A stretch of DNA of 44,661 nt from Escherichia phage HH3 (PP759150); one strand, 5' to 3'. Shown: positions 60 to 44,661, counted from the stretch's first letter. Numbers and translations are program-made. Notes: generated by a model from the sequence alone, not told the origin.

Positions 60-190
60 GCAACCAATGCGAGTTGCAGAATGGTGGGTGAGAAATGCAG
101 TTTGCGGACACAGCAGATAGCGATCGACTTTTTCATGCGCGTGATTAATATTGGTTGCATTCGTGCCCGCACCCTGCTAGATTGGTTGCA
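60..190. promoter_or_regulatory. Cluster of three copies of the 9-mer TGCAACCAA / TTGGTTGCA upstream of the first plus-strand ORF
   Basis: gcaaccaa at 60-67, ttggttgca at 151-159 and 182-190; the last is followed by caccaacacgagg and the ATG at 212. Confidence 0.5.
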
Positions 191-511: not shown

Positions 512-781
512 ATGGACCGTAGACGAGCTAAACAGCTTTCGTGGCATATTCCACTGCATTGCATACGAATATGGGCGCAGAATGCGGTTGAGGGCGATTC
601 TGTGTTCTGGTGCTATCGCGACGATGTGAAGCCATTAACGCAGACACGCTACTTGCACCAGTTCGCAGCAAAACACGATTTCAGGGTGCGGACTTCCTTG
701 CAACCAATGGGAATCCGTATTACATTACGCCGGAAGCCCGCCGTTGAGCGGGTAGGCAAACACTGGAGACTGAGCAAATGA
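512..781 (+). CDS. hypothetical protein (89 aa)
   Basis: ORF with RBS aagggg 7 nt upstream of ATG; contains one in-frame copy of the gcaaccaa motif at 700-707. Confidence 0.5.
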   Translation: MDRRRAKQLSWHIPLHCIRIWAQNAVEGDSVFWCYRDDVKPLTQTRYLHQFAAKHDFRVRTSLQPMGIRITLRRKPAVERVGKHWRLSK

Positions 782-3255: not shown

Positions 3256-3262
3256 ACAATCA

Positions 3263-3286
3263 AGCCCGGTTAATTCCGGGCTTTTT
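3263..3286 (+). terminator. rho-independent terminator
   Basis: agcccgg-ttaatt-ccgggct followed by TTTTT. Confidence 0.7.
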
Positions 3287-3327
3287 ATTGCTTGACTTGC
3301 AACCAACCAACAAGAGGAGTAATCAAG

Positions 3328-3486
3328 ATGGCACGTAAAGATGTTTGGGTATTGGCAATCTGGACCACCGCGGCTTTTATCGGCATGGTTATTTGCGAAT
3401 TGATATTGCCCGCCGCCATATGGACCGTGGTATATTGTCCACGGTCCACTAATCAGGAATTAATTAAATATGCACCCGCAAACTAA
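3328..3486 (+). CDS. small membrane protein (52 aa)
   Basis: RBS agaggag 8 nt upstream of ATG at 3328; hydrophobic core VWVLAIWTTAAFIGMVICELILPAAIWTVVY; 9-mer motif at 3299-3306 just upstream. Confidence 0.45.
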   Translation: MARKDVWVLAIWTTAAFIGMVICELILPAAIWTVVYCPRSTNQELIKYAPAN

Positions 3487-9942: not shown

Positions 9943-10707
9943 TTAGCGCGGAATGCCACAAATCTCGTTGAGTGTTTTCACGTCCAGCGCCACCGCCGTG
10001 GTTTTTGGCTTGTCCGGGTATGGGATGAATTGCTCAACTTCAGGCCATGCCTTAATCAGCTTCTTGTCAGTATTGTGCAGGTCCAGCACACCGGTAACGG
10101 TGAGTTTGAACGCATCAAACTTCGCGCGCAACTCGCGACGGGCATTGTCGTTTCGGTCCAAGCGCTTACAGAAGTCATGGCCCGCCGGGTAGTCTACGCG
10201 ACCGCGAGGAAGATATATCGGCAGCGCTTTCCCGTCCTCGTCAACTTCGCACACTGACGCGAGCATAACTGTCTCGAACCCCGGAACGATATCGCCGAGA
10301 TCAGGCGCGAGCTTATTCATATATTTCTCTTCCCAGTATCCTCGATGTACGCGGTATTGGCGACCGTCACCGCTCAAGGACAAGGTGCGAACATTTCCGC
10401 CTGCGTTGATTTCGAAAGTGGCGTCGTAAACGCTGCCGATACCTTTCGGGCGGTCGGTGTTATAACTATACGTCGCCTTGTTGGTGTATACGCTGACGCC
10501 GTACATCTGCGACTGGTCATCGCGGATTGACAGGATATGCTCGCGTAGCGCGGCGAATGTGCGAATGCCGTCCGGCATACAGTCCAGCGTGATTGCGTAC
10601 GCCAGGTCGCGAGAGTCCATCATGATTGTTTTGGCTTCGGTAGCGATTTCGTGGTCGCGCAGGATGTTAGCCAGGATCTGATTTTTAATGTCTTTCGTCA
10701 GTCTCAT
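9943..10707 (-). CDS. hypothetical protein (254 aa), second gene of antisense cassette
   Basis: Minus-strand ORF inside plus-strand morphogenesis block; no motif recognised. Confidence 0.6.
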   Translation of the reverse strand: MRLTKDIKNQILANILRDHEIATEAKTIMMDSRDLAYAITLDCMPDGIRTFAALREHILSIRDDQSQMYGVSVYTNKATYSYNTDRPKGIGSVYDATFEINAGGNVRTLSLSGDGRQYRVHRGYWEEKYMNKLAPDLGDIVPGFETVMLASVCEVDEDGKALPIYLPRGRVDYPAGHDFCKRLDRNDNARRELRAKFDAFKLTVTGVLDLHNTDKKLIKAWPEVEQFIPYPDKPKTTAVALDVKTLNEICGIPR

Positions 10708-11061: not shown

Positions 11062-11085
11062 TTTGTCTTCCTTCATATCTCTGTT

Positions 11086-11115
11086 GGTGTGCAACCAATA
11101 TAAAGCAACCAACAT
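11086..11115. promoter_or_regulatory. Divergent control region with two TTGGTTGC copies (minus-sense reading TTGGTTGCTTTATATTGGTTGCACACCAACAGAG)
   Basis: Motif copies at 11089-11100 and 11106-11113 between minus gene 10747-11061 and plus scaffold gene. Confidence 0.45.
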
Positions 11116-11215
11116 CCGCAATGCAAGCGAATTTTGCGATTATTTTTATCGCTGATAATATTAAGGCGTGAAGTCAAGCGGGTGGCCCGCTTTGCCACAA
11201 TCCCAGGGGGATAGC

Positions 11216-16368: not shown

Positions 16369-16682
16369 TTGAGGCGGCGCGACGATTTTATGGCCCGCCG
16401 CCACCCTCAGAAGATTTAGCCGCGAGTTTATGGGGCGCGACACCGGAAGACGTGTGTCCGCCTGTTGCGCTATGGCCCGACAACGCGAAGGTAGTCGCCG
16501 TATTCACAGATTGCTCCACGCAATGGCGCACCGGATTCGGTGGCGCATACGGCATCGACTACGGCGTTTTAGAATGGCTGTTTAAGATGCACGGTATCGA
16601 AAACGCGCAACGTGCGTTTAAAGATATTAAGCTAATGGAGCGCGTTGCGCTGGATGAAATGGCACGGCAGAACCCTGCATAA
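16359..16682 (+). CDS. T extension of tail assembly chaperone GT, reached by programmed -1 frameshift
   Basis: Slippery heptamer A_AAA_AAC at 16359-16365 in G frame; the -1 frame is open from 16359 to the stop at 16682 (checked codon by codon). Confidence 0.6.
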   Translation, partial: KKLIEAARRFYGPPPPSEDLAASLWGATPEDVCPPVALWPDNAKVVAVFTDCSTQWRTGFGGAYGIDYGVLEWLFKMHGIENAQRAFKDIKLMERVALDEMARQNPA

Positions 16683-17013
16683 TGGAGCGGGACAGGCGGG
16701 ACGTCCCGCTTTGTCCCGATCTGTCCCGCCCTCTAAAAACTGCATACCTATTCAGTTTTACTGCATAACCTGAAAGCGGGACGGCGGGACGTCCCGATCT
16801 GCCCCACCCCCCCAAAATGTGAATGGTTATGCAGTTTTCGTGCATAAAACAAACGGGACAAAAAGCGGGACAGAATGGGGCGGGACAAAGCGGGACGTCC
16901 CGCCGTCCCGCTCAGTGCTGCCGCGGGTTTCAGCCGATCGGGACAGGCGGGACAAAGCCCAGTCTTTCAGACTAGACGGGGGTCATTGGCCCCCCTCGTC
17001 TGAGACTGCATAA
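16683..17013. repeat. Repeat-dense non-coding element, copy A: about 17 CGGGAC(A) units in both orientations, three GCGGGACGTCCCGC palindromes, CTGCATAA repeats, terminal long hairpin (16960-17008)
   Basis: Read directly; last 187 bp (16827-17013) are a diverged copy of 44475-44661. Confidence 0.85.
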
Positions 17014-17077
17014 GATTTGTTTTAAATTCGCTGATACAATAACCCACGGCAACTGCATAAAAAGGGGGGACTGCATA

Positions 17078-21140: not shown

Positions 21141-21881
21141 ATGTTAACGAAGAAGGTTAAAAGCGATATCGCCGCACACGTCGCGGCATGTCTGCCGGAG
21201 GAAGCCTGCGGCCTGGTTGTAATGGCGGGCCGTAAACAAGTTTTTGTCCCATGCCAGAACGTTTTCGAAGACCCGACCGGTGCGCGCTCACGTAGAGACG
21301 CGTTTACTATTAGTGATACGGCATGGATGGATGCGGAGGATATGGGCGACGTCGTTCGCGTAGTCCACTCCCATCCAGGCCAGCGCGAGCTAACCCCATC
21401 ATTGGGCGACGTTAACGGATGCAACGGCAGCGGCATAGTGTGGGCCATTACCAATGAGTATGGCGACTTTATCGAGATTGACCCGGAAGACCCGCCACTG
21501 GTAGGTCGACGATTTGTTCTCGGAATTACGGATTGCTATGGCCTCGTCATGGACTGGCACAAAAAGCAGGGCGTGATTCTGCCGGACTTCCGCGTGCCGT
21601 ACAACTGGTGGGAAATGGGGGAGAACCTGTACATGGATAACTGGTACGGAGCAGGCTTCAGGGAATGCGAGGAGAATACACCGGGGGCGATGGTCATCAT
21701 GCAGATTAGCGCGCCAGTGCCAAACCATGCTGGGATCTTCCTTCCGGGCAACCAACTCCTACACCATATCTACGGCAGCATGTCGAGCGTCGTTCCCTTC
21801 CGTGCAGGATTTTTCCGCGACAATGTGGTTAAATGGGTACGTCATAAAGACCTACCGGGGAATATCACAGAATGGCAATGA
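21141..21881 (+). CDS. tail assembly protein K-like (JAB/MPN plus NlpC/P60-type domain)
   Basis: JAMM-like motif VVHSHPG; position between L-like and I-like genes. Confidence 0.7.
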   Translation: MLTKKVKSDIAAHVAACLPEEACGLVVMAGRKQVFVPCQNVFEDPTGARSRRDAFTISDTAWMDAEDMGDVVRVVHSHPGQRELTPSLGDVNGCNGSGIVWAITNEYGDFIEIDPEDPPLVGRRFVLGITDCYGLVMDWHKKQGVILPDFRVPYNWWEMGENLYMDNWYGAGFRECEENTPGAMVIMQISAPVPNHAGIFLPGNQLLHHIYGSMSSVVPFRAGFFRDNVVKWVRHKDLPGNITEWQ

Positions 21882-26578: not shown

Positions 26579-26658
26579 GGTATCATCTCCTGTATTGGGT
26601 TGAGTTTTAGTATTACACCGCTCAACCAAGAATGCAACCAATTTAAGAGGATTCAGCT

Positions 26659-28984: not shown

Positions 28985-29009
28985 AAGGGGCCATGCGGCC
29001 CCTTTTTTA
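28985..29009. terminator. bidirectional rho-independent terminator
   Basis: ggggcc-atgc-ggcccc followed by TTTTTT, A-run on the other side. Confidence 0.75.
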
Positions 29010-29582
29010 GTTTGAGTTTTCCCAGTCCATTTTGCGCCGCACCAGCGGGCTTTCGTAATATTCTTTACCCTCAACTTCCACTAAAGGCCAGTCATTAACA
29101 ATCACGTACGGCTCCGCGATATCTTCAATAACTCCGTGCGCGCTTTGCGGCCCTAACGACACACCAACCAGGATAACACCGGCAACGCGACGGGTCAGAT
29201 ATTCGCGAGCGCAACGAGCCTCTACCAGTCCGCGACGGATGCCGCTGGTGGCTTTAACCTCGTAGGTCCAGACGGCATCAATCATGTGCTCTTTGTAGTC
29301 GGGACCGGATTTTACCTTGCGCTTGCCGACCATGATAATATCGCCGCGGTCGATAGTGTTAGCGCTAAACAGGCCCGTACGCATGAGTAAGCCTTGCGGG
29401 ATACAACTTCGACCGCCTGCCTGCCCTTCGAGGTACATGCCTGCAAACATTTCGCCCAGCACACCGACAAGACGGCTTTGCTTGCACGCGTCAGACTTGT
29501 ATCGCCACTGGTCAAACTCGATGCTTGCTATCATTGCCGCCAGGTGGAATTGTTTACCAGATATTTCGTATTCGCCGTACAT
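29007..29582 (-). CDS. hypothetical protein (191 aa), possible PD-(D/E)xK-type nuclease
   Basis: RBS gaggga; weak GDII ... DAVWTYEVK motif pattern. Confidence 0.5.
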   Translation of the reverse strand: MYGEYEISGKQFHLAAMIASIEFDQWRYKSDACKQSRLVGVLGEMFAGMYLEGQAGGRSCIPQGLLMRTGLFSANTIDRGDIIMVGKRKVKSGPDYKEHMIDAVWTYEVKATSGIRRGLVEARCAREYLTRRVAGVILVGVSLGPQSAHGVIEDIAEPYVIVNDWPLVEVEGKEYYESPLVRRKMDWENSN

Positions 29583-29623
29583 TGTGGATCCCTCATTGAT
29601 GCGGGCCGAAGCCCGCGATTAAA

Positions 29624-30133
29624 TTATTTAAGTGCGCCAGTCACCAGTGTTTTTTCCATGTTACGGAAATCTTCCTGCGTCATGCAGATTTTCGATCCGT
29701 CTTCACCGGTTAGCACGACCATAGGCTGGACGTCCTGGGCTACAACTCCAAAATTGGCGGCTGTAACCGTTTTACCGGGGGTAAATGCGCCGCCTGTTTT
29801 GACGGGCCAACCTTTGAGGCTATCGAATTGTGCTGCCGTTGTATCGATCTGAATCTCGTCATGCACGGTCATGTAAGACTCGCCCAGCAGGGCGGCATAC
29901 GCCACCAGATCCACGATGTTATCTTCCTGGTGCTTACGGTGCTGGCGCACCAGCTTCAGGCAGATCAGGAAGGTCCAGGCTTCTTGCTCGGTAAGGTCGC
30001 GCCCGGTAAGCGCGTTAAACACGGCAGCGATTTGTTTAGCGCTGCGTTCTTCTTTCGCGTTGTCATAGCCGTTTTCTTTCCCGCGCTGTTCCATAGTGGT
30101 GGCGGCGTTTTTGCAGTATTCGTATGCTTTCAC
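29624..30133 (-). CDS. hypothetical protein (start uncertain, GTG 30133 or ATG 30094)
   Basis: Track ORF runs to 30214 but would read through the palindromic operator and hairpin; trimmed. Confidence 0.4.
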   Translation of the reverse strand: MKAYEYCKNAATTMEQRGKENGYDNAKEERSAKQIAAVFNALTGRDLTEQEAWTFLICLKLVRQHRKHQEDNIVDLVAYAALLGESYMTVHDEIQIDTTAAQFDSLKGWPVKTGGAFTPGKTVTAANFGVVAQDVQPMVVLTGEDGSKICMTQEDFRNMEKTLVTGALK

Positions 30134-30191
30134 AGTATTACCCTTTTTTTTTAGCGAGGGGGCGGTATTGCCCCCGACACGTTTACTATAG

Positions 30192-30213
30192 TGCAACCAA
30201 CCTATTGGTTGCA
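30192..30213. promoter_or_regulatory. Perfect palindrome TGCAACCAA-ccta-TTGGTTGCA (full dyad of the recurrent 9-mer)
   Basis: Read directly; overlaps the last codons of the HAD-like gene and precedes the next minus gene; followed by hairpin 30156-30178. Confidence 0.7.
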
Positions 30214-30672
30214 AGTGAATTTTGCAACGTTTATTGCGTAAATTTTCGGGACCAAATCACCACACGCCCGACGAATTGCCGCGATGTTCTTCTCGCAATC
30301 TTCAATGATGACCAGTTCAGACACGTCCGCGTAACATACCATTTTGAACACGGCGCACGCTTTAAACTCTGGCGGCGGGGTGTCGTCCAGCATGTGGCGC
30401 ATAAACAACCTGCCTACCGGGAAGACCTCCAATTGCTCGGCGGTGGTGTCCCAACATTCTCGCTGCCGGTTGGTCAGATACGCGATCTCGAAGCCTTGCT
30501 CTTTATACATGCGCAGTAGCGGCAGCATATCCATGTTAAGGTCTTCGCGGACGTGCGCTTTGTGCCACTTCGCCCAGAAGGTGGATTTAGTTTTTATGCC
30601 CGGCACCAGGTCGGCACGCGCATCGCTTGACCCATTAATAACGCCATCCAGATCACAAATCAGTAATTTCAT
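30202..30672 (-). CDS. HAD-superfamily hydrolase (phosphatase-like), 156 aa
   Basis: N-terminal motif LLICDLDGVI (HAD motif I DxDG). Confidence 0.65.
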   Translation of the reverse strand: MKLLICDLDGVINGSSDARADLVPGIKTKSTFWAKWHKAHVREDLNMDMLPLLRMYKEQGFEIAYLTNRQRECWDTTAEQLEVFPVGRLFMRHMLDDTPPPEFKACAVFKMVCYADVSELVIIEDCEKNIAAIRRACGDLVPKIYAINVAKFTCNQ

Positions 30673-30893
30673 TTCAATTCCTCAATAAGGGTGTATCGGG
30701 CGCTGCGCGCGGTTAAGGAGTTGCACACGAAATGGCAACGCCGAGTCATGACAAGCCAACCGGTGAGGTCAAGGCCCAGGATGTATTCGGGGCGAGACGC
30801 GCGCACCACACGATTGCGTCGCGGGTCGATGTTATAGTCTCTTAGCATTTGGTCTACGACCGCGGGGTCGCGGTCAACGATTAAGATATTCAT
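30669..30893 (-). CDS. hypothetical protein (74 aa)
   Basis: ORF, ATGA coupling with the HAD gene. Confidence 0.4.
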   Translation of the reverse strand: MNILIVDRDPAVVDQMLRDYNIDPRRNRVVRASRPEYILGLDLTGWLVMTRRCHFVCNSLTARSARYTLIEELK

Positions 30894-31359
30894 GTAACTC
30901 ACTCTCGCTCATTATTTCAATTTGTGCGCTGCCGATGGGCGGCGCTTCGTCAAATATTATTAATTGCTGGCACTTGTTATTGCTCGGACCGACTTCGCCG
31001 GTGGCGGCGTGAATGAATCTAATCCGCCAGTCCAGAAGAATTATCATATTGGCGGTATTCCGGGCCAGCTTCGCCCACTTAGTCGACGTGTCCTGATTCA
31101 GTAGCATGACGGTCCGGCGTCCGTGCGCTGCGCACTCGACCCACGGCAGCGGATCGGAATACGGCGGATTGCACCACTTCCACCCTTTCAACTCTGCCCA
31201 GTCCACATCAAGCGCGCTGTGCTCTGCCGTGAAGTAACGCGGTAGAAGGTGGTTGGCGTCGCTTGCCGCCATATCGTAACGGAATCGGTATTTCCGACGA
31301 AGCGGTTTAAATAACGCTGGCGGCGTGCGCCAGCTATCTTTTTGCTCATTCTTCGTCAT
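30874..31359 (-). CDS. DNA N6-adenine methyltransferase (phage Dam-type), 161 aa
   Basis: Catalytic motif NPPY in WKWCNPPYSDPLPW; N-terminal WRTPPALF pattern typical of small phage Dam enzymes. Confidence 0.8.
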   Translation of the reverse strand: MTKNEQKDSWRTPPALFKPLRRKYRFRYDMAASDANHLLPRYFTAEHSALDVDWAELKGWKWCNPPYSDPLPWVECAAHGRRTVMLLNQDTSTKWAKLARNTANMIILLDWRIRFIHAATGEVGPSNNKCQQLIIFDEAPPIGSAQIEIMSESELHEYLNR

Positions 31360-31804
31360 GGTCGGGGGCTATCGCGTACAGGGCGATATTGTTGCCTTTC
31401 TTCAGGACCCGCTGCACGCGCTTTGACTCCTCGGCGCTCATAGGGCGACCATGAAAATAGCCATTTGTGGGATTGCGCCACGCCACAAGCACCAGATCTT
31501 TACGGTCGATCTTAGACTGGCTACCCTTCGGACGCACGTACTCCTCGGCCCGTTTGCAATGCTCGCGCAGACCTTCGGCAGTGATGCGGTTTAGCGAGAC
31601 GGTGGTGGTGTATCCGGTGCGCTGCATAATACCCATCAATTTGAAAAGCAGTTCGAAGCGCTCCTCTAGCTCCTTGCGCATCTTTTCCTCGCCTTCATAG
31701 CTCGCCAGGTAGGTATCCGCCAACGCGTTCGCCCGTTCGGCTTGCTCGCGGGCTTCGAGGCATTGCGCGGCCCAGTAATCTTTTTCTTCTTGTAAAATTT
31801 TCAT
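31346..31804 (-). CDS. hypothetical protein (152 aa)
   Basis: ORF in replication block. Confidence 0.5.
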   Translation of the reverse strand: MKILQEEKDYWAAQCLEAREQAERANALADTYLASYEGEEKMRKELEERFELLFKLMGIMQRTGYTTTVSLNRITAEGLREHCKRAEEYVRPKGSQSKIDRKDLVLVAWRNPTNGYFHGRPMSAEESKRVQRVLKKGNNIALYAIAPDHDEE

Positions 31805-32047
31805 TTATTTAATCTCCGTAGTGCGAATCTCTTTGCGTGGGATAAATTTGCCGTCCATCTCCACCCAACAGACTCCGTATCGCCATTGGGTGTTACGACC
31901 TGTTTGCTCGGCGTACACGGTCTTGCATCCGTAGCGTTCCGTGTAGTAAATAGCTGCGGTAGGTACGCAAACACAAACGGCAATCATGAGGGTGAGTATC
32001 ACCCAAAATCTAAGGTCGCCGTCGTAGTCAAAAAATAATGATTTCAT
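31805..32047 (-). CDS. small membrane protein (80 aa)
   Basis: RBS ggagac; hydrophobic segment FWVILTLMIAVCVCVPTAAIYY. Confidence 0.5.
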   Translation of the reverse strand: MKSLFFDYDGDLRFWVILTLMIAVCVCVPTAAIYYTERYGCKTVYAEQTGRNTQWRYGVCWVEMDGKFIPRKEIRTTEIK

Positions 32048-32065
32048 CGTTATGTCTCCAGGTAT

Positions 32066-32091
32066 TAAAAAGGGCGTCCAACCGGACACCC
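32066..32091 (-). terminator. rho-independent terminator (minus strand)
   Basis: Minus-sense gggtgtcc-ggtt-ggacgccc followed by TTTTT; 9-mer motif at 32101-32109 immediately upstream. Confidence 0.6.
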
Positions 32092-32110
32092 TCAATATAA
32101 TGCAACCAAT

Positions 32111-32434
32111 TTACGCATAAAAGTTAGGGTCGCGCGCTACGTCTACCAGATACAGGTTACTAATGCGGTTGCCGTAGTGGCCTGGTGTGCGCTGACGGCA
32201 CACTACGGCATAGCCTGGAGGGATTGTATTGCCAGTCTCAATAATCCACGCCACGCGTGCGCCAGACAGCGTCTTACCGTTGTATTCGATACGTGTTCCG
32301 CCATCGGCAGTGTTAAGGTTGCCAATCTTGCAGCCTGTGGACTTCAGGCGAATGACGCCGGTCTTGCTGTCGTATGAAAAAAGCTGATTGGTCATTGCCA
32401 CTGAAAAGTCGATGGCGTCGAATGTAGTATTCAT
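32111..32434 (-). CDS. HNH_3-like small protein (107 aa), possibly degenerate homing-endonuclease-like
   Basis: Pattern YNGKTLSGARVAWIIETGNTIPPGYAV...PGHYGNRISNLYLV resembles HNH_3 endonucleases but the canonical DH-NG core is altered. Confidence 0.45.
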   Translation of the reverse strand: MNTTFDAIDFSVAMTNQLFSYDSKTGVIRLKSTGCKIGNLNTADGGTRIEYNGKTLSGARVAWIIETGNTIPPGYAVVCRQRTPGHYGNRISNLYLVDVARDPNFYA

Positions 32435-33141
32435 TTTAAATTTTCCTCGTTAACCGCTATCGCGAAGCCGCGCGGGGTGAGTGAGCGGATTAATTTTGTA
32501 CGAGCGGATTTACCACCGAGGCGACTATACTGTTTCGAGTACCCTTTTTCAACGAAAACAGGTTTCTTCTCTGGCATACGGAAGCCGTTGCCGGTCCATA
32601 AGCAGGTCAGCTTCGGATATGAATCGCGGGCGTTGATGTATTCAGGGAATAACGGGTGTACGTCATCCTCTGGCAAATAGCCGCCATACTCCCACGGGTC
32701 AAACGAGTGGTCCGGCTTACGCCATTGAGTGGAGAGCACGCTGCGCGGATTCTCAATCATATATGGCACTTCGAAGAAATCGCCCAGGTAAGCGGCGATC
32801 TTCGCGGTGCGCACCGCCTTAAGCTGGAAGGCAGGGTCGCGGGCGCGTTTGCGCGGGAAAGCTGGCGCGCCGCTCACCGCCAGATCAGTACACGGCGGGA
32901 ATGCATAGATAATATCCGGCGTGCCGAAGTCGCCATTCATCGCGCGGTCCACGAAGTCCAGGTCAATAAACTCATTGCGATATCGGATACCGCGACCATA
33001 GATACGGTAATCAAGGTAAGACCCGTGATCGGCTTCGGAGTAGTTGAAGCAATAACACTTATGCCCCATCTCGGCAGCACGCTCAATCATCAAGCCGCTG
33101 CCGTCAAACAATGACCAGATTGTCATTTTAGCAATAGTCAT
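32431..33141 (-). CDS. compact DNA C5-cytosine methyltransferase-like protein (236 aa) with variant motifs
   Basis: Motifs in C5-MTase order: I SLFDGSG, IV FPPCTD (PC-T instead of PC-Q), VI ENP (instead of ENV), VIII-like QWRKP; about 100 aa shorter than typical C5 MTases. Confidence 0.55.
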   Translation of the reverse strand: MTIAKMTIWSLFDGSGLMIERAAEMGHKCYCFNYSEADHGSYLDYRIYGRGIRYRNEFIDLDFVDRAMNGDFGTPDIIYAFPPCTDLAVSGAPAFPRKRARDPAFQLKAVRTAKIAAYLGDFFEVPYMIENPRSVLSTQWRKPDHSFDPWEYGGYLPEDDVHPLFPEYINARDSYPKLTCLWTGNGFRMPEKKPVFVEKGYSKQYSRLGGKSARTKLIRSLTPRGFAIAVNEENLK

Positions 33142-35002: not shown

Positions 35003-35042
35003 TTCTAAAATCCTCGATAGTGCTAACCTGCTCACTATACTG

Positions 35043-35321
35043 TTAAGCGACCAATTCAGCAACCAATAAATCACAGTCGGCTATGTTGTCTATGACGCGA
35101 ACGTCCGCACCGCGGCGGGCCATTCGCTCATGTTCTCGTACCTGGTGCGGCTTCGGTTTGCCACCGGGGCGCTTCACCTCGACGAACACTATTCTGCCGT
35201 TGATGATGATTATCAGGTCTGGCGCACCTGCTCGCCCCTCCCACGCCACTTTGCGGCAGAATCCGCCGACGGCTTTCACCCGTCTCATCAAGTGACTTTG
35301 AATCTTGCCTTCGGGTGTCAT
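35043..35321 (-). CDS. VRR-NUC domain nuclease (92 aa)
   Basis: GAPDLIII ... VFVEVKRPGGKPKPHQ motif; start overlaps the Pol I stop. Confidence 0.7.
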   Translation of the reverse strand: MTPEGKIQSHLMRRVKAVGGFCRKVAWEGRAGAPDLIIIINGRIVFVEVKRPGGKPKPHQVREHERMARRGADVRVIDNIADCDLLVAELVA

Positions 35322-38626: not shown

Positions 38627-38716
38627 TTTCCAATTCCTCATTCTCGCATGTATCGGGGTTATTATGAGCCACCCCGTTCGGCTTGGTTGCTAATCTACTT
38701 GGTTGCGCCTGGGTGG

Positions 38717-38959
38717 TCAAGCATTTTCATTAAAAAGATTTCGGGTCACGTAGTTGGTGGCGTTCTCGACCCAGCTTAGCGGCGGGCGTTCGATGTTCTT
38801 TTCCACCCAATAGACGGCAGCTTCGCTATAGCCGTCGTCCAGCCAGCGGGTCGGGTGGCGAATCATCCAGGCCACCATTAACACGCCTTGCACACAATGC
38901 AGGATAAAGCCCAGTGCGCCGAGCAAAAACATCAATAAGATTGCGAATACTTTATTCAT
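38717..38959 (-). CDS. small membrane protein (80 aa)
   Basis: Two hydrophobic segments FAILLMFLLGALGFIL and VLMVAWMI. Confidence 0.5.
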   Translation of the reverse strand: MNKVFAILLMFLLGALGFILHCVQGVLMVAWMIRHPTRWLDDGYSEAAVYWVEKNIERPPLSWVENATNYVTRNLFNENA

Positions 38960-40382
38960 TGCTTAAGTCCTCGTCTGTAGCTTCCGACCACGCAGGGCGC
39001 GGGTCGTCGATTGGTGCTAACACAGGTTTAGCGGGTGCGCGTGTGATTTTAGCACACAGCTTCGCCCACACTTTCGGTTTTTCGTCCTTCAGCACCTTCT
39101 CGGCATCTGTCGGGCTGAGCAATGTTTCTTTGTACATCACATCGCGCTTGATCCGGGCCTTCGTGAATATTTCAATCACTTCGCTCTCGTCCGCCCACTT
39201 ACGGATCCCTTCCTTACCGGCAACCATCTTAAGGCCCAACGATTCGCCATCGCCCGCCATGACCGCCTTGAATACCGCGGATTCGATAGCTTTGATGTGC
39301 TGGCGCATTGCGTCAAGTCCTTCATAAGCCTTGCGCAGTTCCGCCGCGCTCATAGCGCCTGGGGTGGATTCCTTCTTGCCCCGTTTAGCACGTCGGGCAG
39401 CCTTCCGGGCTTCGCGGGCCATATTGCGGTCGTGGTTGGCGCACTCTTCCTCGGTTGCCACGCTCACGTCGTCGCCCAGGTCTTCGTCGGTTGCCGTTGG
39501 TGGCGTCATCGTGTCGATTGCGGCCTTCGCCCGGATGCTGCACTGGTCCGCAAATCTGCACCACTGGCACGCATCGACGCTGGGCCGGAAGTCGGCGCGG
39601 GTTAGTCCCTTCTTGCCGCGGGCGTATGCATCGAGCGCGGCGATAGCACGCTTGGACGCAAACGTCGCGAATATCTCCAGCGCTTCCACTGAGATATCCC
39701 ACTCTGACGCCCCGCCGCAATACGGCTGGAAGATGACCAGGCGCACGGTCGTAATGTCATACATGGTTTGCAGCTTGCGCAGCAGTCCGAGCGCGTACAA
39801 CATAAGCTGTTTGTTTTCTTTCGCCTCGACCTTATGCCGCCCGGTCTTCAGGTCGCCAACAATCAGCATGTACGTGCCATCGGTCTTCTTCGTGACCATG
39901 ACCATATCGGCAGTGCCGAACGTCTTAACCTTGTTACCGTCGATCTCGACTCCTGGGTGGAGGACGCGGGTGAGATCGGCGCGCATCTCAAGCTGGACAA
40001 ACTCCGCCACTTCGAGGAGCGGTCGCCAGTGGTCGATGTACGCGTCGCACTGTTTCACCATATCGTCGTTGACCAGTACGCCGCCTTTCGGTGCTTTCGG
40101 GTGCGCCTTTACTGGCCCCTTGCCTTCATTCTCGACGTAACACCCTTTATACGTCTTTGCTGTTATCAGCTTTTCACCGGCGATAATGCGGTTTAGCACC
40201 ACTTCAGATACGGTGTGCATACTCGTACCATTAATCGCGGCCTGTCCTGATTCGTTCGGGATATCTTTTTCGACCACCAGGGCGGCGGGACACCCCATCC
40301 ATTTTTTAGCACCGGATGGGCCAAGTAATGAGTGTTCCGTATTGCTACCGGATTGCGTTTTACGTTTTGGTTTAATCGCCAT
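38952..40382 (-). CDS. PD-(D/E)xK exonuclease, Cas4/RecB-like (DUF2800-like), 476 aa
   Basis: N-terminal HSLLGPSGAKKWMGCP signature; C-terminal Cys cluster CQWCRFADQC. Confidence 0.65.
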   Translation of the reverse strand: MAIKPKRKTQSGSNTEHSLLGPSGAKKWMGCPAALVVEKDIPNESGQAAINGTSMHTVSEVVLNRIIAGEKLITAKTYKGCYVENEGKGPVKAHPKAPKGGVLVNDDMVKQCDAYIDHWRPLLEVAEFVQLEMRADLTRVLHPGVEIDGNKVKTFGTADMVMVTKKTDGTYMLIVGDLKTGRHKVEAKENKQLMLYALGLLRKLQTMYDITTVRLVIFQPYCGGASEWDISVEALEIFATFASKRAIAALDAYARGKKGLTRADFRPSVDACQWCRFADQCSIRAKAAIDTMTPPTATDEDLGDDVSVATEEECANHDRNMAREARKAARRAKRGKKESTPGAMSAAELRKAYEGLDAMRQHIKAIESAVFKAVMAGDGESLGLKMVAGKEGIRKWADESEVIEIFTKARIKRDVMYKETLLSPTDAEKVLKDEKPKVWAKLCAKITRAPAKPVLAPIDDPRPAWSEATDEDLSNE

Positions 40383-40570
40383 TATTCCACCCTTGAAAAC
40401 TGAGCAATGTAATAGTCATGTTTAACACCGGCCCGCTTCGCGGCTTCGTTCATGGTAGCCGCCAAACCTCTGGCTTGAGTCCAGCAGCAATTCCAGTTCT
40501 GATTCATAACGATTTCTGGTTGCGCATCGCCGGTAATACGGCAGCGAAATAAAACGAAAAATATAGCCAT
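40382..40570 (-). CDS. hypothetical protein (62 aa)
   Basis: RBS gggaga. Confidence 0.4.
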   Translation of the reverse strand: MAIFFVLFRCRITGDAQPEIVMNQNWNCCWTQARGLAATMNEAAKRAGVKHDYYIAQFSRVE

Positions 40571-40822
40571 TTATTTTGTCTCCCAGCGGTCAATTGTTTT
40601 TGCTTCGGATGCAACGGCGAAACGAACATATTCCGGATTTGAATCCGCCCAAATATAAAAGTCTGGATTGGTAAATGTGGTGCGCTTAATTTGCGCGGGG
40701 GTGTTACGGCGTTTATCTATTACGGCAACGCGTGACTGAAAGCTGCCGATACGTTCGAATAGCCAATAATATGGGCGCTGGTCGCGGGAATCCACCGCCT
40801 CGATTAGCGTGAAGCGTGCCAT
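40571..40822 (-). CDS. hypothetical protein (83 aa)
   Basis: RBS gaggacgag; follows terminator. Confidence 0.45.
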   Translation of the reverse strand: MARFTLIEAVDSRDQRPYYWLFERIGSFQSRVAVIDKRRNTPAQIKRTTFTNPDFYIWADSNPEYVRFAVASEAKTIDRWETK

Positions 40823-40833
40823 TGTCTCGTCCT

Positions 40834-40862
40834 CTAAAAAGAGGCCCGCAGATTAGCGGGCC
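40834..40862 (-). terminator. rho-independent terminator (minus strand) after the first early gene
   Basis: ggcccgc-taatct-gcgggcc followed by TCTTTTT on the minus strand. Confidence 0.65.
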
Positions 40863-40870
40863 GTATAATA

Positions 40871-41386
40871 TTAGTCTTCCAGTTCGAAATAGGTTTCTAC
40901 GATTTCTTTAAGTTCTGTGTGGAAGTCCGCCACGTCGTCGTCTTCCAGTTTAGCGATTGATTTGATCTCGAACGATTCCAGCAGGTCGTCGAATTCGTCG
41001 TTCGCATCGTCATCATCACCGCCTGCGATAATCGCGGCATACTGTTTGATCTCGTCGCGCATCTCCGCCAGCGGATCGGCATCTTTCTCACCTTTGCCTT
41101 TCGCTGGTGCTTTTTTACCCTTCGCCGGTTTTTCGTCTTCGGCGTCATCCTCGTCGTCATCATCCTCTACGACTTCTTTTTTGGCCTTACCTTTCGCCGG
41201 GGCTTTTTTGGTTTTCGCTGGTGCTTCGTCTTCAGCGTCGTCATCTTCTACGACTTCTTTTTTGGCCTTAGACGGCTTTTTATCTTCCTGCTTACCAACG
41301 GCAGCGCCAACGGTTTCATAATGTTTAGCGATGATTTCCAGTGCTACTACGCCGCGAGTGATCAGGTTTACGATTTGCTCAAACAT
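40871..41386 (-). CDS. highly acidic early protein with tandem mixed-charge repeats (171 aa), candidate DNA mimic
   Basis: Start ATG 41386 with RBS ggag; repeats EVVEDDDAEDE...PAKGKAKK; first gene downstream of the leftward early promoter. Confidence 0.55.
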   Translation of the reverse strand: MFEQIVNLITRGVVALEIIAKHYETVGAAVGKQEDKKPSKAKKEVVEDDDAEDEAPAKTKKAPAKGKAKKEVVEDDDDEDDAEDEKPAKGKKAPAKGKGEKDADPLAEMRDEIKQYAAIIAGGDDDDANDEFDDLLESFEIKSIAKLEDDDVADFHTELKEIVETYFELED

Positions 41387-41789
41387 GGTATATCTCCGAT
41401 TGGTTAAGTTTAGGTGTCGACAGTTAACTTCGTCGGTGGCCTTAACATAGTGCCTGGTTGCGCGTTCTCCCTTTCGGGTAGTGGACCAGGTTATATAATC
41501 ACGGTTGGGAATCCTGACACTTCGATCCGGCCCCTGCGTTGCCCCTCTCCAGTTTGCGTCCTGCATCCTGTCGACGGGGTGAATAATAGATTGGTTGCAG
41601 GATAGGTGTCAACAACTAATTTCAAAAAAAAAAGCGCCGAAGCAAAATGCGACGGCGCTAACCAATAAGAGACAATGAGACGGGAGTATTATTACACGCG
41701 TGCGCGCCCGTTTCAATATCCCAAAGGATTTGACACCTTGCGGTTTTAGGTGTAGTTTCGTTGGTCATTAACCAACTGGGGGCAGAGCA
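41387..41789. promoter_or_regulatory. Divergent early control region: leftward promoter (TTGACA at 41612-41607, TATTAT at 41589-41584, 9-mer in the spacer), rightward promoter (TTGACA 41730-41735, TAGTTT 41753-41758), GTCGAC-containing inverted repeats
   Basis: Hexamers read directly; region separates divergently transcribed replication genes. Confidence 0.5.
41623..41659 (-). terminator. rho-independent terminator on the minus strand inside the control region
   Basis: agcgccg-13 nt loop-cggcgct followed by ten T on the minus strand. Confidence 0.6.
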
Positions 41790-42119
41790 ATGAATGTAAA
41801 CGACGCAATCGAAATGTTAACGAAGACTGTTAGCAGTGAAACAAGCCGGTCCTGGGCTTATACCGATGCCGTTGGGGCGGTGTTATTTGAGGTCGAGCGC
41901 CTGCGCAGTGTAGAAAAAGAATTACGCGCCAGGCTGGAATTGCTCAACGGTACGGCGGCGAGCAAGCTACAAAAACACAATGAAGAAATGGAAGAATACA
42001 AAAAACAGGTTATCCGTTTACGTGATGAGGGGAAGTCATGGGCAATGATCGCGGAGTTGACAGGAATTAATCAGAGCACCGTGCGATCCTGGGTACGCAA
42101 TAACAAAACTTCTAAGTAA
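41790..42119 (+). CDS. HTH DNA-binding protein (109 aa), candidate transcription regulator
   Basis: C-terminal helix-turn-helix-like WAMIAELTGINQSTVRSW; first gene of the rightward early operon. Confidence 0.55.
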   Translation: MNVNDAIEMLTKTVSSETSRSWAYTDAVGAVLFEVERLRSVEKELRARLELLNGTAASKLQKHNEEMEEYKKQVIRLRDEGKSWAMIAELTGINQSTVRSWVRNNKTSK

Positions 42120-42129
42120 GGCCACGGCA

Positions 42130-44394
42130 ATGAGCTTAATTAAATTCGCTGTAACACGACCCGCTAAAAAAGGCGAAAAAGCCAGGGCGGAAAACTTCCA
42201 GATGACAACTGATGAATTTTTCGAATTTATCAATGACGCGAAAGAAATCTCATCGGTGCACATCAACAAGACCGAGGATAAAGCCGAGTATGCGCGCCGC
42301 AAGCGCAAGGCCGATGGCATCGTGGCATATACCAGTGACGGCCTACGCCGTAAGACCAGCGCGGTGGACCGCTCGATCCTGTTCTTTGATATTGACCGCA
42401 CCGACACTCGCACCTTGCGCCGCTGCCGTAAGGCTTTCATCGACGCGGGCCTGGAACACGTATTCCACACCACAACCGGCGACCGTCACCCACTGAAAGG
42501 CGGCACGCGTTGCGCCCGTTTCCTGGTGTTGACGGACAAGCCTGTCCCGGCGGAAGACCTGGGCCGTGTCCAGTATGCGCTATTACACCAACTTGGTCTG
42601 TCAGATGTGGACTTCGACGATTGCACGAAAGACACAAACCGCCTGATGTACCTGCCGCACCAGCAATCGGTTATTAAGTGCCACTACGGCAAACGTGCCA
42701 ATGTGCGGCGTCTGCTCCGCCTGGCGGACAAGCTGGGGGTGGAGAAAGAGGAAGTACGCCGCGAACTAACCCAGGGCGACGACGAAGTGGCTGACGGCAT
42801 TCTTGATTGGTGCTTTCAGGCTGGATTCGAGCCACTATCGTCCGGGCGTGGCTATGAAGTGCCGTGTCCGAACGAACATCTGCACAGCGGCGAAGGGTCG
42901 ACGGCTATCATGGTCAAGGATGGCGAGATCCGTTTCAAGTGTATGCACACCGGAAACGAGTGTTGCTCGGAACTGAACCGACACCAGCACCTGGCGCTAC
43001 GTCTTATCGGGATCCCGGACCACCTGAACGTCGAGCCACACAATATGTCCCGTAAGCAAATCGCCGCCATCCTGCCAGGTCTGGACGACGAGGAAGTCGA
43101 ATCCTTATATGATCACATTGTTGATGCGGTTGGCGACGGCGAAGAATATGGCGTGTGCACCGATGCGGATCTGGATAACGAGCCGGTTGCGCTGTTCAGT
43201 AAGCACGACCCGATCATCGAAGGTCTGATTAACTTCAAATCGACCTGGTATATGGCGGGCGAGTCGAACATCGGCAAGTCCTTCTATGTGCTGGGGCAGA
43301 TGGGCGCGGTTGCCGCGGGTATCCCGTTTGGCGGTGCGAAGGTCGTCCAGTCTCATTGCTTCTATTTCGACGCGGAAGGCGGCGAAGCCTCCAACCAGCG
43401 CAAAGAAGCATTGCAGATTAAATACGAGCACGACCTCGACAAGCTGCACATTATCGATCTGCAGTCACGCGGATGGGATATCACCAGCAAGTCCGGTTTG
43501 CGCGAAGTTATCAGCTATATCAACCGCACTGCTAACGGCGAGCCGGTCGGCCTGGTGGCGTTCGACTCACTCAACCAGACTGTTGCGCTGCGGTCCGCCG
43601 AGGCTAAACCGTTCGACGAGAACAACGCCAGCGATATGGGTGAAGTAGTCAAAGCGCTGAAAGCCATTGCGGAAAACACGGGCGGCAGTGCGGGCGTCAT
43701 CCACCACCCGGCGAAGGGTGCAAACGGCAGCAGATCCCCGCGTGGGTCCGGTGCGCTTCATGGCGCTGTCGATTCCGCTTTCTTCCTGGAACAGCCGGAC
43801 GACAACCAGCCGGGGCAATTGAACCTTTATCACGAAAAGTCACGTAACGGCATCAAGCAAGCGCCGCGTGGCTTCGTCCTGCTCAAGTGCAAGGTGGCGG
43901 TAGATCTCCGCAAGTCAGAAGCGTTCGCGTCGCACCAGTCCACCAGCACCGGGCCAGACTTCGGTGACGTAGTTGCTGGTTGGGACGTCAAACCAATTGC
44001 GTCCACCCCGCGCGACGAGACTTTATACCTCGTACCGGTCGCCCTGGCACCGTTCGCTATAGAACAGGCGAAGGCCGCAGGAAAAGCCGCAGTTAAGGAA
44101 GAGAACACCGCCGGACCGCGCACCGAAAAAGAGAAAGTGCTTTATGCGGCCCTGGAAAAACTGATGGAAGATAACCCGGACCATACTGGTTTCAGTAAAT
44201 CGGCAATCGTCCGCCAGGCGGGACTCGCAAAGGGTGGCACTTCGACGAAGGCAATAGACGATATGGTCGAGCGCGGCGTGATTGGTTTCTATACAGACCC
44301 GCACACCGGGGCCATATATGGGTCATCGAATTTAGTCATTAAATCGGATATCCCCATTACACTTTCTGCGACCGATGACGACCTGAAAGATTAA
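42130..44394 (+). CDS. primase-helicase (AEP-type primase-like N-terminus, zinc-binding region, P-loop ATPase C-terminus), 754 aa
   Basis: LFFDIDRTD acidic motif, Cys cluster CPNEHLHSGEGS...CMHTGNECC, Walker A GESNIGKS, Walker B LVAFDSLNQ. Confidence 0.7.
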   Translation: MSLIKFAVTRPAKKGEKARAENFQMTTDEFFEFINDAKEISSVHINKTEDKAEYARRKRKADGIVAYTSDGLRRKTSAVDRSILFFDIDRTDTRTLRRCRKAFIDAGLEHVFHTTTGDRHPLKGGTRCARFLVLTDKPVPAEDLGRVQYALLHQLGLSDVDFDDCTKDTNRLMYLPHQQSVIKCHYGKRANVRRLLRLADKLGVEKEEVRRELTQGDDEVADGILDWCFQAGFEPLSSGRGYEVPCPNEHLHSGEGSTAIMVKDGEIRFKCMHTGNECCSELNRHQHLALRLIGIPDHLNVEPHNMSRKQIAAILPGLDDEEVESLYDHIVDAVGDGEEYGVCTDADLDNEPVALFSKHDPIIEGLINFKSTWYMAGESNIGKSFYVLGQMGAVAAGIPFGGAKVVQSHCFYFDAEGGEASNQRKEALQIKYEHDLDKLHIIDLQSRGWDITSKSGLREVISYINRTANGEPVGLVAFDSLNQTVALRSAEAKPFDENNASDMGEVVKALKAIAENTGGSAGVIHHPAKGANGSRSPRGSGALHGAVDSAFFLEQPDDNQPGQLNLYHEKSRNGIKQAPRGFVLLKCKVAVDLRKSEAFASHQSTSTGPDFGDVVAGWDVKPIASTPRDETLYLVPVALAPFAIEQAKAAGKAAVKEENTAGPRTEKEKVLYAALEKLMEDNPDHTGFSKSAIVRQAGLAKGGTSTKAIDDMVERGVIGFYTDPHTGAIYGSSNLVIKSDIPITLSATDDDLKD

Positions 44395-44407
44395 ATTTTG
44401 CGCGCAT

Positions 44408-44468
44408 TGGTTGCCATTTTGAGTGTTTTTAGCCGGTCGCATTGGTTGCCGTGTAGTGTAAATATAAT
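44408..44468 (+). promoter_or_regulatory. Two direct CATTGGTTGCC copies followed by a consensus TATAAT hexamer
   Basis: ttggttgcc at 44408-44416 and 44442-44450, tataat at 44463-44468. Confidence 0.45.
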
Positions 44469-44474
44469 GCATAG

Positions 44475-44661
44475 TTATGCAATAAAACTGCATAAAGTAG
44501 GCGGGACAAAAAGCGGGACAGACCAGGGGCGGGACAAAGCGGGACAGCACCCCGTCCCGCCCCGGATGACGCGGCCTGGAGAGGAGCGGGACAGCGGGAC
44601 AGCACCCCAGTCTTTCAGACTAGACGGGGGTCAACGGCCCCCCTCGTCTGAGACTGCATAA
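44475..44661. repeat. Repeat element copy B: six or more CGGGACA units plus terminal hairpin (44608-44656) ending in CTGCATAA at the window edge
   Basis: Aligns with 16827-17013 over 187 bp; hairpin arms identical and only the loop differs by two bases. Confidence 0.85.

Follow-up and report, generated by a model that had tools for sequence, protein, structure and literature searches.

At positions 30192-30213 of the genome of Escherichia phage HH3 (PP759150), a perfect palindrome is found, TGCAACCAA-ccta-TTGGTTGCA. The preliminary description of this DNA took it for a full dyad operator, made of two copies of a word that recurs at gene and operon boundaries. The locus therefore raises the questions of what the word is for, what binds it, and whether the functional unit is the palindrome or the single copy.

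Genome context

The window, i.e. the whole stretch of 44,661 nt that was analysed, is a Dhillonvirus genome of the HK578/SSL-2009a group. Megablast of positions 29000-33000 gave about 150 near-full-length matches, nearly all to E. coli siphophages of the genus Dhillonvirus; SSL-2009a (91%), HK578, JL1, EK99P-1 and SO-1 were among the named ones. The gene map was transferred by tblastn from phage Oekolampad, and the intergenic share of the window on this map is 7.96%. The genes fall into two parts:

41790 to the window end, then 212-28980, plus strand: a helix-turn-helix protein, the helicase-primase, small genes, and lysis, terminase, head and tail genes
41566 down to 29007, minus strand: nuclease, ssDNA-binding protein, DNA polymerase I, SNF2 helicase, methylases and phosphatase

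The phage group is virulent, and no integrase or repressor module was seen in its annotated records. In the HK578 record, three sigma70 promoters are annotated in the control region and the motif is not. The searchable literature (on the motif, Dhillonvirus promoters and the named relatives) held no description of the motif, and nothing on how Dhillonvirus phages time gene expression.

Counts and placement of the motif

The suspected enrichment of the word was borne out by counting. The 8-mer GCAACCAA occurs 18 times, compared with 1.91 copies expected and a maximum of 6 in shuffles, and the 9-mer TGCAACCAA has 10 exact copies, compared with 0.53 expected (0 of 100 shuffles reached 10). The core word can be written as (T)GCAACCAA(T), 9-10 bp long, with the extended consensus tGCAACCAAt. 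Copies of GCAACCAA begin at 60, 700, 3299, 11091, 11105, 21748, 26634, 30193, 32102 and 35059 on the plus strand, and at 151, 182, 30205, 38683, 38699, 41591, 44407 and 44442 on the minus strand. The positions listed earlier were correct within 1-2 nt, and one copy, at 21748, had been overlooked. The copies show a strand polarity, being plus from 60 to 35059 (with the minus copies 151, 182 and 30205 as exceptions) and minus from 38683 to 44442; this polarity is absent from Edwardsiella phage eiAU-183.

Placement between genes or at gene ends had also been claimed, and holds for all copies except the one at 21748. Fourteen of the 18 copies are intergenic, in about 8% of the genome, and GCAACCAA is the most frequent intergenic 8-mer of the window. 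Three more belong to gene ends: the copy at 30205 overlaps a stop codon, and those at 35059 and 700 fall in the last codons and the last 27 codons, respectively, of their genes. Enumeration of the 9-mer with at most one mismatch, the check that had been suggested, again gave intergenic enrichment (14/21, binomial P = 2.8e-11). The remaining exact copy is:

21748..21755, plus strand: mid-gene exact 8-mer inside the minor tail protein gene, with no promoter signal

This copy is conserved in relatives as coding sequence, and it is probably a coding coincidence and not a functional site.

Conservation in Dhillonvirus and beyond

A search of related phages, which had likewise been proposed, found 18-23 copies of GCAACCAA in each of seven other Dhillonvirus genomes, at the same loci. 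In orthologous intergenic alignments of 7 genomes, the motif columns were 96% identical and the other columns 74% (Mann-Whitney P = 1.6e-14). The bases between the copies of a doublet vary freely; at 11091/11105, the 6 nt between the copies vary and both copies are invariant. Judged from these alignments, the motif columns are under purifying selection. Single copies make up most sites, together with direct repeats spaced 9 to 35 bp apart, and the direct doublets noted earlier are present at 11091/11105, 38683/38699 and 44407/44442. The window is short of two repeat units found in relatives, one of 17 bp at 32102 and one of 23 bp at 3299, the latter loss having removed a -10 hexamer. Both units were lost by deletion between motif copies.

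The motif extends beyond the genus. Homologs of the 41790 protein led to two distant metagenomic relatives, L009 and L011, with 14 and 13 copies in 20 kb, in promoter layouts that match those of the window. Phage eiAU-183 (genus Eiauvirus) has the same genome plan and 21 copies in 37 kb; 15 of the 21 are in its 11% intergenic DNA, where the word is again the top 8-mer. Serratia phage Smarc3 has 13 copies, an enriched number, mostly inside genes. Salmonella phage Shemara, which has the replication module common to Dhillonvirus, contains one copy. Phage T1, with 8 copies almost all inside genes, was rejected as a case of the same phenomenon.

Motif copies within predicted promoters

For each copy, the best sigma70-type promoter overlapping it on either strand was scored and compared with 300 versions in which the flanks were shuffled around an unchanged motif; the promoters are consensus matches, i.e. 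predictions throughout. At P<=0.05, 9 of the 18 window sites were in register with a sigma70-like promoter, as were 15/23 in the Dhillonvirus genome LM40P1, 8/14 in L009 and 6/13 in L011, with about 5% of sites expected by chance. This agrees with the promoter association that had been suspected. The predicted strand points at the downstream gene in essentially every case with P<=0.05.

The offsets of the motif from the start of the -35 hexamer are clustered. At -4 or +2, the motif contributes its own TTGCA as the -35 hexamer (TTGCAT, TTGCAA or TTGCTG); at +5 to +7, the motif directly follows a TTGAC(T/G) -35; at +13/14, it is at the end of the spacer and abuts the -10; and at +27 to +30, it overlaps the end of the -10 and the start site. 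Both orientations relative to transcription occur. The TATA-like hexamers noticed earlier adjoin the motif in the minus-strand reading, as TTGGTTGCAcTATAGT, TTGGTTGCAtTATATT and TTGGTTGCttTATATT. In total, copies are built into the core of at least 8 predicted sigma70-type promoters of the window. From the 40 best non-overlapping sigma70-like matches of the window, 12 intergenic promoter candidates directed at genes were hand-picked, and the core of 8 of them contains the motif. The window-wide count of promoter-like sites shows no excess over shuffles. The loci concerned, other than the palindrome, are as follows:

41583..41612, minus strand: leftward early promoter P_L, TTGACA-8 nt-GCAACCAA (41591-41598)-tc-TATTAT; the motif fills the spacer beside the -10
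38692..38720, minus strand: predicted promoter of the ssDNA-binding protein gene, TTGACC-8 nt-GCAACCAA (38699-38706)-g-TAGATT-a-GCAACCAA (38683-38690)
35034..35066, minus strand: predicted promoter of a Lar-like gene, TTGCTG-N17-TATAGT; copy 35059-35066 plus a degenerate copy, TTGGTCGC
32094..32121, minus strand: locus of copy 32101-32109, minus-strand reading TTGGTTGCAtTATATT; P = 0.06 in the window
26621..26641, plus strand: tail fiber gap, copy 26633-26641 plus a degenerate copy CAACCAA at 26621; weak promoter, P = 0.25
11091..11126, minus strand: doublet 11091-11098 and 11105-11112, TTGCAT-N18-TATATT; P = 0.04 and 0.09
3292..3306, plus strand: 3299 locus, TTGACT-t-GCAACCAA directly after a strong terminator at 3262-3283
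698..726, plus strand: copy 699-707 in the 3' end of gene 512-781, TTGCAA-N17-TACATT; z = 2.9, P = 0.007
151..190, plus strand: predicted promoter of gene 212-502, TTGGTTGCAT (TTGCAT as -35)-N17-TAGATT; P = 0.02 and 0.05

The copy at 41591 was seen, as reported before, in the spacer of a TTGACA-N18-TATTAT promoter. P_L is the joint-best sigma70-like match in the window (11/12 hexamer positions, joint-highest score 15.2; flank-shuffle z = 4.0, P = 0.003). Its motif and both hexamers are kept in 8/8 genomes, and L009 and L011 have two motif copies in the spacer. The leader downstream of this promoter folds no better than shuffles. In the promoter of the ssDNA-binding protein gene (z = 3.2), one copy is in the spacer and the other at -10/+1. 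The -35, both copies and positions 1, 2 and 6 of the -10 are conserved and position 3 of the -10 varies; L009 has the same geometry.

Similar layouts are found elsewhere in the window. The Lar-like gene doublet lies inside the last codons of the VRR-NUC gene; it is kept in 8/8 genomes as well as in L009 and L011, and eiAU-183 has it at the corresponding boundary. The doublet at 11091..11126, in a divergent region with the scaffold and capsid genes downstream on the plus strand, has one copy in the spacer and one at -10/+1 (TATATTGGTTGCACACCAACA). At 151..190, the TAGATT is overlapped by a second copy (TAGATTGGTTGCACACCAACA), a layout that recurs in LM40P1 and in an eiAU-183 doublet. The promoter at 698..726 points at the next genes, and its site is conserved in 8/8 genomes.

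Three loci are better preserved in relatives. At 3299, a spacer of 18 nt, CATACT and a second copy follow in relatives, which corresponds to the 23-bp unit that the window has lost; LM40P1 reads TTGACT-N18-CATACT (P = 0.02), and L009 and L011 read TTGACG-N17-AATACT with the motif in the spacer. The gap that holds the site at 26621..26641 is 60 bp long and separates a small leftward gene from the lateral tail fiber gene, whose ATG lies 17 nt downstream of the site. In LM40P1, the doublet at this site is perfect, with its copies 17 bp apart, and TATATT follows it toward the leftward gene (P = 0.007-0.013). The copy at 32101 is separated by 1 nt from the stop codon before it; a T-run hairpin comes next, then gene 31805-32047. 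In relatives, a second copy 17 bp upstream supplies a TTGCAT -35, and the LM40P1 doublet has P about 0.02. A predicted promoter leading straight into such a hairpin fits poorly with a model of only a promoter and its repressor.

The palindrome at 30192-30213

Nowhere else in the window do two exact copies stand inverted within about 20 bp of each other, and the palindrome can be read as part of a single promoter:

30185..30214, minus strand: TTGCAA (in copy 30205-30213)-N18-TATAGT; P about 0.02

The second copy (30192-30200) is in the spacer beside the -10, and a conserved 5' hairpin and then gene 29624-30133 come next. The palindrome is perfect in 6/8 genomes; in Zar3M it is degenerate, and LM40P1 has in its place a direct doublet with a spacing of 17 bp, in which the upstream copy is flipped and TTGCAA is still at the -35. 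Such a flip with TTGCAA held in place fits a protein site overlapping the -35, not a bare -35 element. The full dyad operator proposed for this locus was not upheld, since the inverted pair is not conserved and the other copies are single or direct. On this comparison the palindrome is best described as two sites of one predicted promoter.

The same locus bears on whether the motif could act in RNA, as a 5'-UTR, processing or terminator element with the palindrome as a hairpin. The copies at 26634, 3299 and 182 are indeed 17-24 nt upstream of start codons, and the palindrome was listed as terminator-like on the plus strand. However, the plus strand is the antisense strand of the genes at this locus, the hairpin is not kept in LM40P1 or Zar3M, many copies are upstream of predicted start sites, and an Rfam search gave no match. 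Because the copies occur in both orientations relative to local transcription, the RNAs would also differ from copy to copy. An action in RNA is thus very improbable, and the earlier view of a protein-type site at the DNA level was supported.

Copies around the replication region

A second setting of the motif is the helicase-primase gene and the non-coding repeats that follow it:

42130..44394, plus strand: helicase-primase, 754 aa, a candidate binder
44407..44449, minus strand: two GGCAACCAATGCG-subtype copies, 13 and 48 nt after the helicase-primase stop, at the left flank of repeat region B
60..67, plus strand: GGCAACCAATGCG-subtype copy flanking repeat region B on the right, in inverted orientation to 44407 and 44442

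A TATAAT is found 13 nt downstream of the second of the 44407..44449 copies; flank-shuffle scoring gave no convincing sigma70 promoter for 44407, 44442 or 60. Around region B, about 480 bp of the window hold 5 copies and a short AT-rich patch, and the copies bracket region B as annotated in SO-1. Dhillonvirus genomes have 2-3 copies at or just past the helicase-primase stop, and L009 and L011 have 3-4. In eiAU-183, 9 copies lie in about 900 bp of AT-rich non-coding DNA after the helicase/primase gene, and 4 more in the gap before the tape-measure gene, the counterpart of region A of SO-1. In Smarc3, 4 copies are within the last 200 nt of the helicase-primase gene.

These placements suggest that the motif might be primarily a replication element, an iteron-like or DnaA-box-like site of a phage initiator (the helicase-primase or a partner). 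The promoter copies would then be secondary and would couple the initiator level to transcription, as DnaA boxes in E. coli promoters do. The clustering of copies where the helicase-primase gene ends, seen in all lineages with the motif, the region A counterpart in eiAU-183 and the mutual inversion of the copies flanking region B all agree with this. So does a possible winged-helix C-terminus of the helicase-primase (domain search: weak Ribosomal_S25 match, E = 0.05); judged from its sequence, the protein also has an AEP-like N-terminal part, and the two flank a RepA-type AAA_25 core. A scan of 2.9 million viral contigs for motif doublets was also made, in which most matches were collagen-like GGCAACCAAGG coding repeats and were rejected. 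It yielded three iteron-like GCAACC(AA) arrays in unrelated contigs, flanking AT-rich DNA near primase or primase-helicase-type genes (in L035 and L106 the array directly follows the gene, and in L105 it is upstream of a D5_N gene).

Several observations speak against a primary replication role. The dense arrays of regions A and B in Dhillonvirus consist of another word, GCGGGAC, and a pure origin role leaves the fixed registers inside promoters unexplained. The helicase-primase is present in all motif-bearing relatives and equally in Shemara, where it is 44% identical over its full length and the genome has a single motif copy; it is about as similar to the Shemara protein as to that of eiAU-183. 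Its C-terminal domain, in turn, differs between Dhillonvirus and eiAU-183, in which the motif is identical. Hence, in these two comparisons, the motif does not co-vary with the DNA-binding domain of the helicase-primase. The arrays in unrelated contigs may be coincidental, given the number of contigs scanned. Overall, a primary replication role is unlikely, though it deserves serious attention.

Candidate binding proteins

The preliminary description named two proteins as possible binders, the helix-turn-helix protein encoded at 41790 and the helix-turn-helix domain of the protein encoded at 3470. The first is the best candidate in the neighborhood:

41790..42119, plus strand: helix-turn-helix protein, 109 aa, encoded by the first gene of the rightward early operon

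It has a C-terminal helix-turn-helix (HTH_23 / Sigma70_r4_2), its model consists of a long helix followed by the helix-turn-helix, and residues 47-106 are nearly invariant across homologs with differing N-termini. A fold search with the model returned only generic helix-turn-helix folds (DeoR, resolvase, TrpR, Mu Mor/C, sigma region 4), matches which are not diagnostic. The protein is restricted to Dhillonvirus, L009 and L011, and only in phages that have it does the motif occur inside the divergent early control region. No homolog was found in eiAU-183 or Smarc3, with their 21 and 13 motif copies, where a small XRE-type regulator is encoded at the corresponding position. The 41790 protein is thus the best local candidate and is unsupported as binder across genera. 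The 3470 protein fared no better: its N-terminal helix-turn-helix matches are sub-threshold, and it was not detected in the compared sequence of L009, L011, eiAU-183 and Smarc3, i.e. the motif-bearing relatives outside Dhillonvirus proper.

All window proteins were profiled phylogenetically against four genomes with the motif (eiAU-183, Smarc3, L009 and L011) and one that lacks it (Shemara). No non-structural protein tracked the motif cleanly in this comparison, from which terS and terL were left out for Shemara. The closest profile was that of Dam, which was undetected in the 20 kb of L011.

This lack of a tracking phage protein, together with an identical word in phages of E. coli, Sodalis, Edwardsiella and Serratia, raises the alternative that the binder is a conserved Enterobacterales host protein exploited by the phages. 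Parts of the word resemble the half-sites ACCAAT (PdhR/GntR type) and GTTGCATT (the CytR site, in a few copies). However, PdhR needs ATTGGT-N3-ACCAAT, and the inspected copies have N5 or the reversed arrangement instead of N3; conservation of the motif is lowest in its CytR-like part, from the ninth base onward; and the DnaA box matches at 4/9 positions only. The motif is also lacking in the related Salmonella phage Shemara, and we know of no host factor with this 9-mer as its site. A host binder is therefore quite improbable.

Proposed function of the motif

With about 18 copies located in predicted promoters and beside a replication gene, and conserved across related genera, (T)GCAACCAA(T) is almost certainly, on sequence evidence, the docking site of a regulatory protein. 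It would be the double-stranded recognition site of a sequence-specific protein of Dhillonvirus and its sister genera. The site would be asymmetric and would work as a single copy, found alone, as direct doublets and occasionally inverted. As its copies bracket the non-coding repeat region beside the helicase-primase gene, the same protein probably acts there too.

Host RNA polymerase should recognise the motif-bearing sigma70-type promoters unaided, and a protein bound to a copy on the -35, in the spacer or at -10/+1 would compete with it. Since the copies occupy just these positions in seemingly competent promoters, negative control is the most likely mode. We therefore favor, tentatively and at not quite an even chance, that the binder occludes host RNA polymerase at the motif promoters, in a negative feedback or shut-off. 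An accumulating binder would then give a genome-wide feedback on, or shut-off of, early and DNA-metabolism promoters. Enrichment, conservation and hexamer register are observed, and it is inferred that the predicted promoters are real and that their occupancy is repressive, as is any choice of binder. The low promoter register in eiAU-183 (2/19 sites, most copies being in two non-coding clusters) weighs against occlusion, as does the lack of a good promoter at 44407, 44442 and 60.

The sequence cannot tell repression from activation, and the motif might instead be a positive promoter element, bound by a phage activator or sigma-appropriation factor that would bring host RNA polymerase to middle promoters in the way MotA does in T4. 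Many of the promoters combine a weak, motif-supplied -35 (TTGCAA, TTGCAT, TTGCTG) with a good -10, the helix-turn-helix of the 41790 protein resembles sigma70 region 4, and the succession of promoter and terminator-like hairpin at 32102 would be sensible if the bound factor modified the polymerase. On the other hand, the strongest motif promoters are already near consensus (TTGACA/TATTAT, TTGACC/TAGATT) and have the motif in the spacer or at +1, positions typical of repressors, and neither position nor orientation is fixed as it is for MotA boxes. An activating role is accordingly considered improbable. A wider version, in which one protein, possibly the helicase-primase or a partner, uses the word both as an origin element and as an operator in nearly every early and DNA-metabolism promoter, is speculative and rather unlikely. 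If it were true, the build-up of replication proteins would shut down the regulon to which they belong, linking replication to transcription in the manner of DnaA. Such a link would be the main temporal switch of a virulent siphophage lineage, and it would be conserved over hosts of three or four genera at least (E. coli, Sodalis, Edwardsiella and, less clearly, Serratia).

Significance

Dhillonvirus phages are common E. coli isolates, and they are used in phage collections, in defence-system studies and as therapy candidates. For these phages, the motif gives a ready-made map of probable promoters, a handle on the regulator via a TGCAACCAAT probe, and a set of roughly 15 sites at which mutations should deregulate the phage. 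A further activity of the site at the replication region, if real, would make it a compact case of replication coupled to transcription in a virulent phage. Genome engineering has to reckon with recombination-prone repeats, two units having already been lost here by deletion between copies.

Comparison with known systems

Symmetric dyad operators of the lambda/Cro or LacI type do not describe 30192-30213, where the two copies act as separate sites in the proposed reading. Nor does a terminator or structured RNA, the hairpin being antisense and not conserved, and without an Rfam match.

The MotA boxes of phage T4 are like the motif in being a phage-specific word of 9-10 bp in many host-polymerase promoters of a virulent phage, which replaces or overlaps the -35. 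They differ in having one position (about -30) and one orientation, whereas the motif has several positions and both orientations, and is also found in promoters with a consensus -35 TTGACA. Fixed position, fixed orientation and replacement of the -35, the marks of the MotA type, were thus not found.

Iterons of primase-helicase replicons, such as the P4 alpha ori/crr and the SaPI Rep origins, likewise follow a multidomain primase-helicase gene directly, as short repeats in either orientation, and P4 ori and crr form two separated non-coding repeat regions, like regions A and B here. In contrast to these systems, the arrays of regions A and B are made of GCGGGAC, most motif copies are in predicted promoters far away, and Shemara has the same protein without the motif.

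The DnaA box of E. coli is the 9-bp TTATCCACA, and DnaA acts as a transcription factor at boxes embedded in promoters. Like the motif, DnaA boxes are asymmetric 9-mers in both orientations, clustered beside a replication function and embedded in promoters. Their sequence is unrelated, and no DnaA-like protein is encoded by the phage, where the candidate is the AEP-like/RepA-type helicase-primase.

The last comparison is with dispersed repressor sites, which together with DnaA boxes come nearest to the motif, namely the stoperators of mycobacteriophages L5 and Bxb1 (bound by gp71), the P1 C1 operators, and the conserved inverted repeats of phiC31. These phages are temperate and the binder is the immunity repressor, whereas the Dhillonvirus group is virulent. 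The stoperators of L5 are oriented with transcription and the motif copies are mixed, and, unlike sites of the L5/P1 type, motif copies also bracket a putative replication region. A cognate repressor of the stoperator type was not found, the 41790 protein being absent from eiAU-183 and Smarc3. In all these systems, as in the window, a short site (9-17 bp) is present in one to three dozen copies, concentrated in short intergenic gaps; it overlaps promoters there and predicted promoters here, where a bound protein would block RNA polymerase. L5 and P1 share with the motif an asymmetric site that occurs as single copies and occasionally as paired or inverted ones, and the P1 operators contain a -35-like TTGC as well. 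An asymmetric, repeated and intergenic site, which characterizes the stoperator type, is what the window contains, with 18 copies, 14 of them intergenic, conserved across genomes.

Predicted promoters, repeat-unit losses and a putative early leader

A module roughly 21 bp long, TA(G/T)ATTGGTTGCACACCAACA, is common to two predicted promoters; within it, a partial inverted copy of the motif comes after the motif itself (TTGGT-N5-ACCAA). The module lies at the following positions:
178-198, first copy of the module
11083-11102, second copy of the module
The rightward early promoter has a similar sequence, TTGGTcattaACCAA, in its leader (position about 41762).

Compared with its relatives, the window lacks one repeat unit at 3299 (23 bp) and one at 32102 (17 bp). 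Both losses are deletions between two motif copies, and the 23-bp deletion removed the predicted -10 element (CATACT) of the 3299 promoter.

The true start of the gene at 40871-41566 is probably Met61. The protein counted from this residue is rich in lysine and in acidic residues, and it aligns with its counterpart in Edwardsiella phage eiAU-183. If the gene starts at Met61, the 180 nt upstream would be a leader:
41387-41566, minus strand, putative leader downstream of the promoter at 41583-41612
The DNA at 41425-41565 matches unannotated DNA of unrelated phages, namely Pseudomonas phage Motto (88%) and various other enterobacterial phages. In the leader region downstream of the promoter, a search for a stable fold found none (z = 0.18) and the Rfam search returned no match.

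Words within genes and the Nmad5 gene

Counted genome-wide, the window has 41 copies of the word CGGCAAC where 10.7 are expected, a fourfold excess, and most of these copies are located within genes. For Salmonella phage Shemara, 17 copies of CGGCAACA were counted against 1.35 expected, 15 of them on one strand irrespective of gene direction. This polar intragenic word is a phenomenon separate from the intergenic motif.

One leftward gene was observed within the rightward structural block:
9943-10707, minus strand, gene with an Nmad5 (nucleotide-modification-associated) domain (E = 1e-57)
From this domain match, the gene may have a function in DNA modification. The small gene upstream of it is predicted to be driven from the motif doublet at 11091/11105.

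Repeat arrays and candidate origins

In three viral contigs unrelated to the window, iteron-like GCAACC(AA) arrays adjoin primase/helicase genes of three different kinds:
L035, 7759-7986, array directly downstream of a Prim-Pol+DUF3987 gene
L106, 4539-4623, array directly downstream of a DnaG-like primase fusion, with an integrase beside the fusion
L105, 1730-2182, array upstream of a D5_N-domain gene
The arrays of L035 and L105 are interspersed with AT-rich DNA; L106 has instead four copies in an 11-bp tandem. These arrays may be a coincidence, or they may represent a widespread type of origin word.

The window itself contains dense GCGGGAC(A) arrays, in both orientations, in two regions:
16650-17077, region A
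44480-44661 plus 1-60, region B
They are accompanied by CTGCATAA words, and a 3' element is common to both regions (cagtctttcagactagacggggg...cccccctcgtctgagactgcataa). One possibility is that regions A and B are ori/crr-type origin iterons; another is that they form a non-coding RNA rich in repeats, which the TATAAT at about 44457 would drive. Both regions are kept in the metagenomic relative L009, and in Sodalis phage SO-1 they are annotated as repeat regions A and B.
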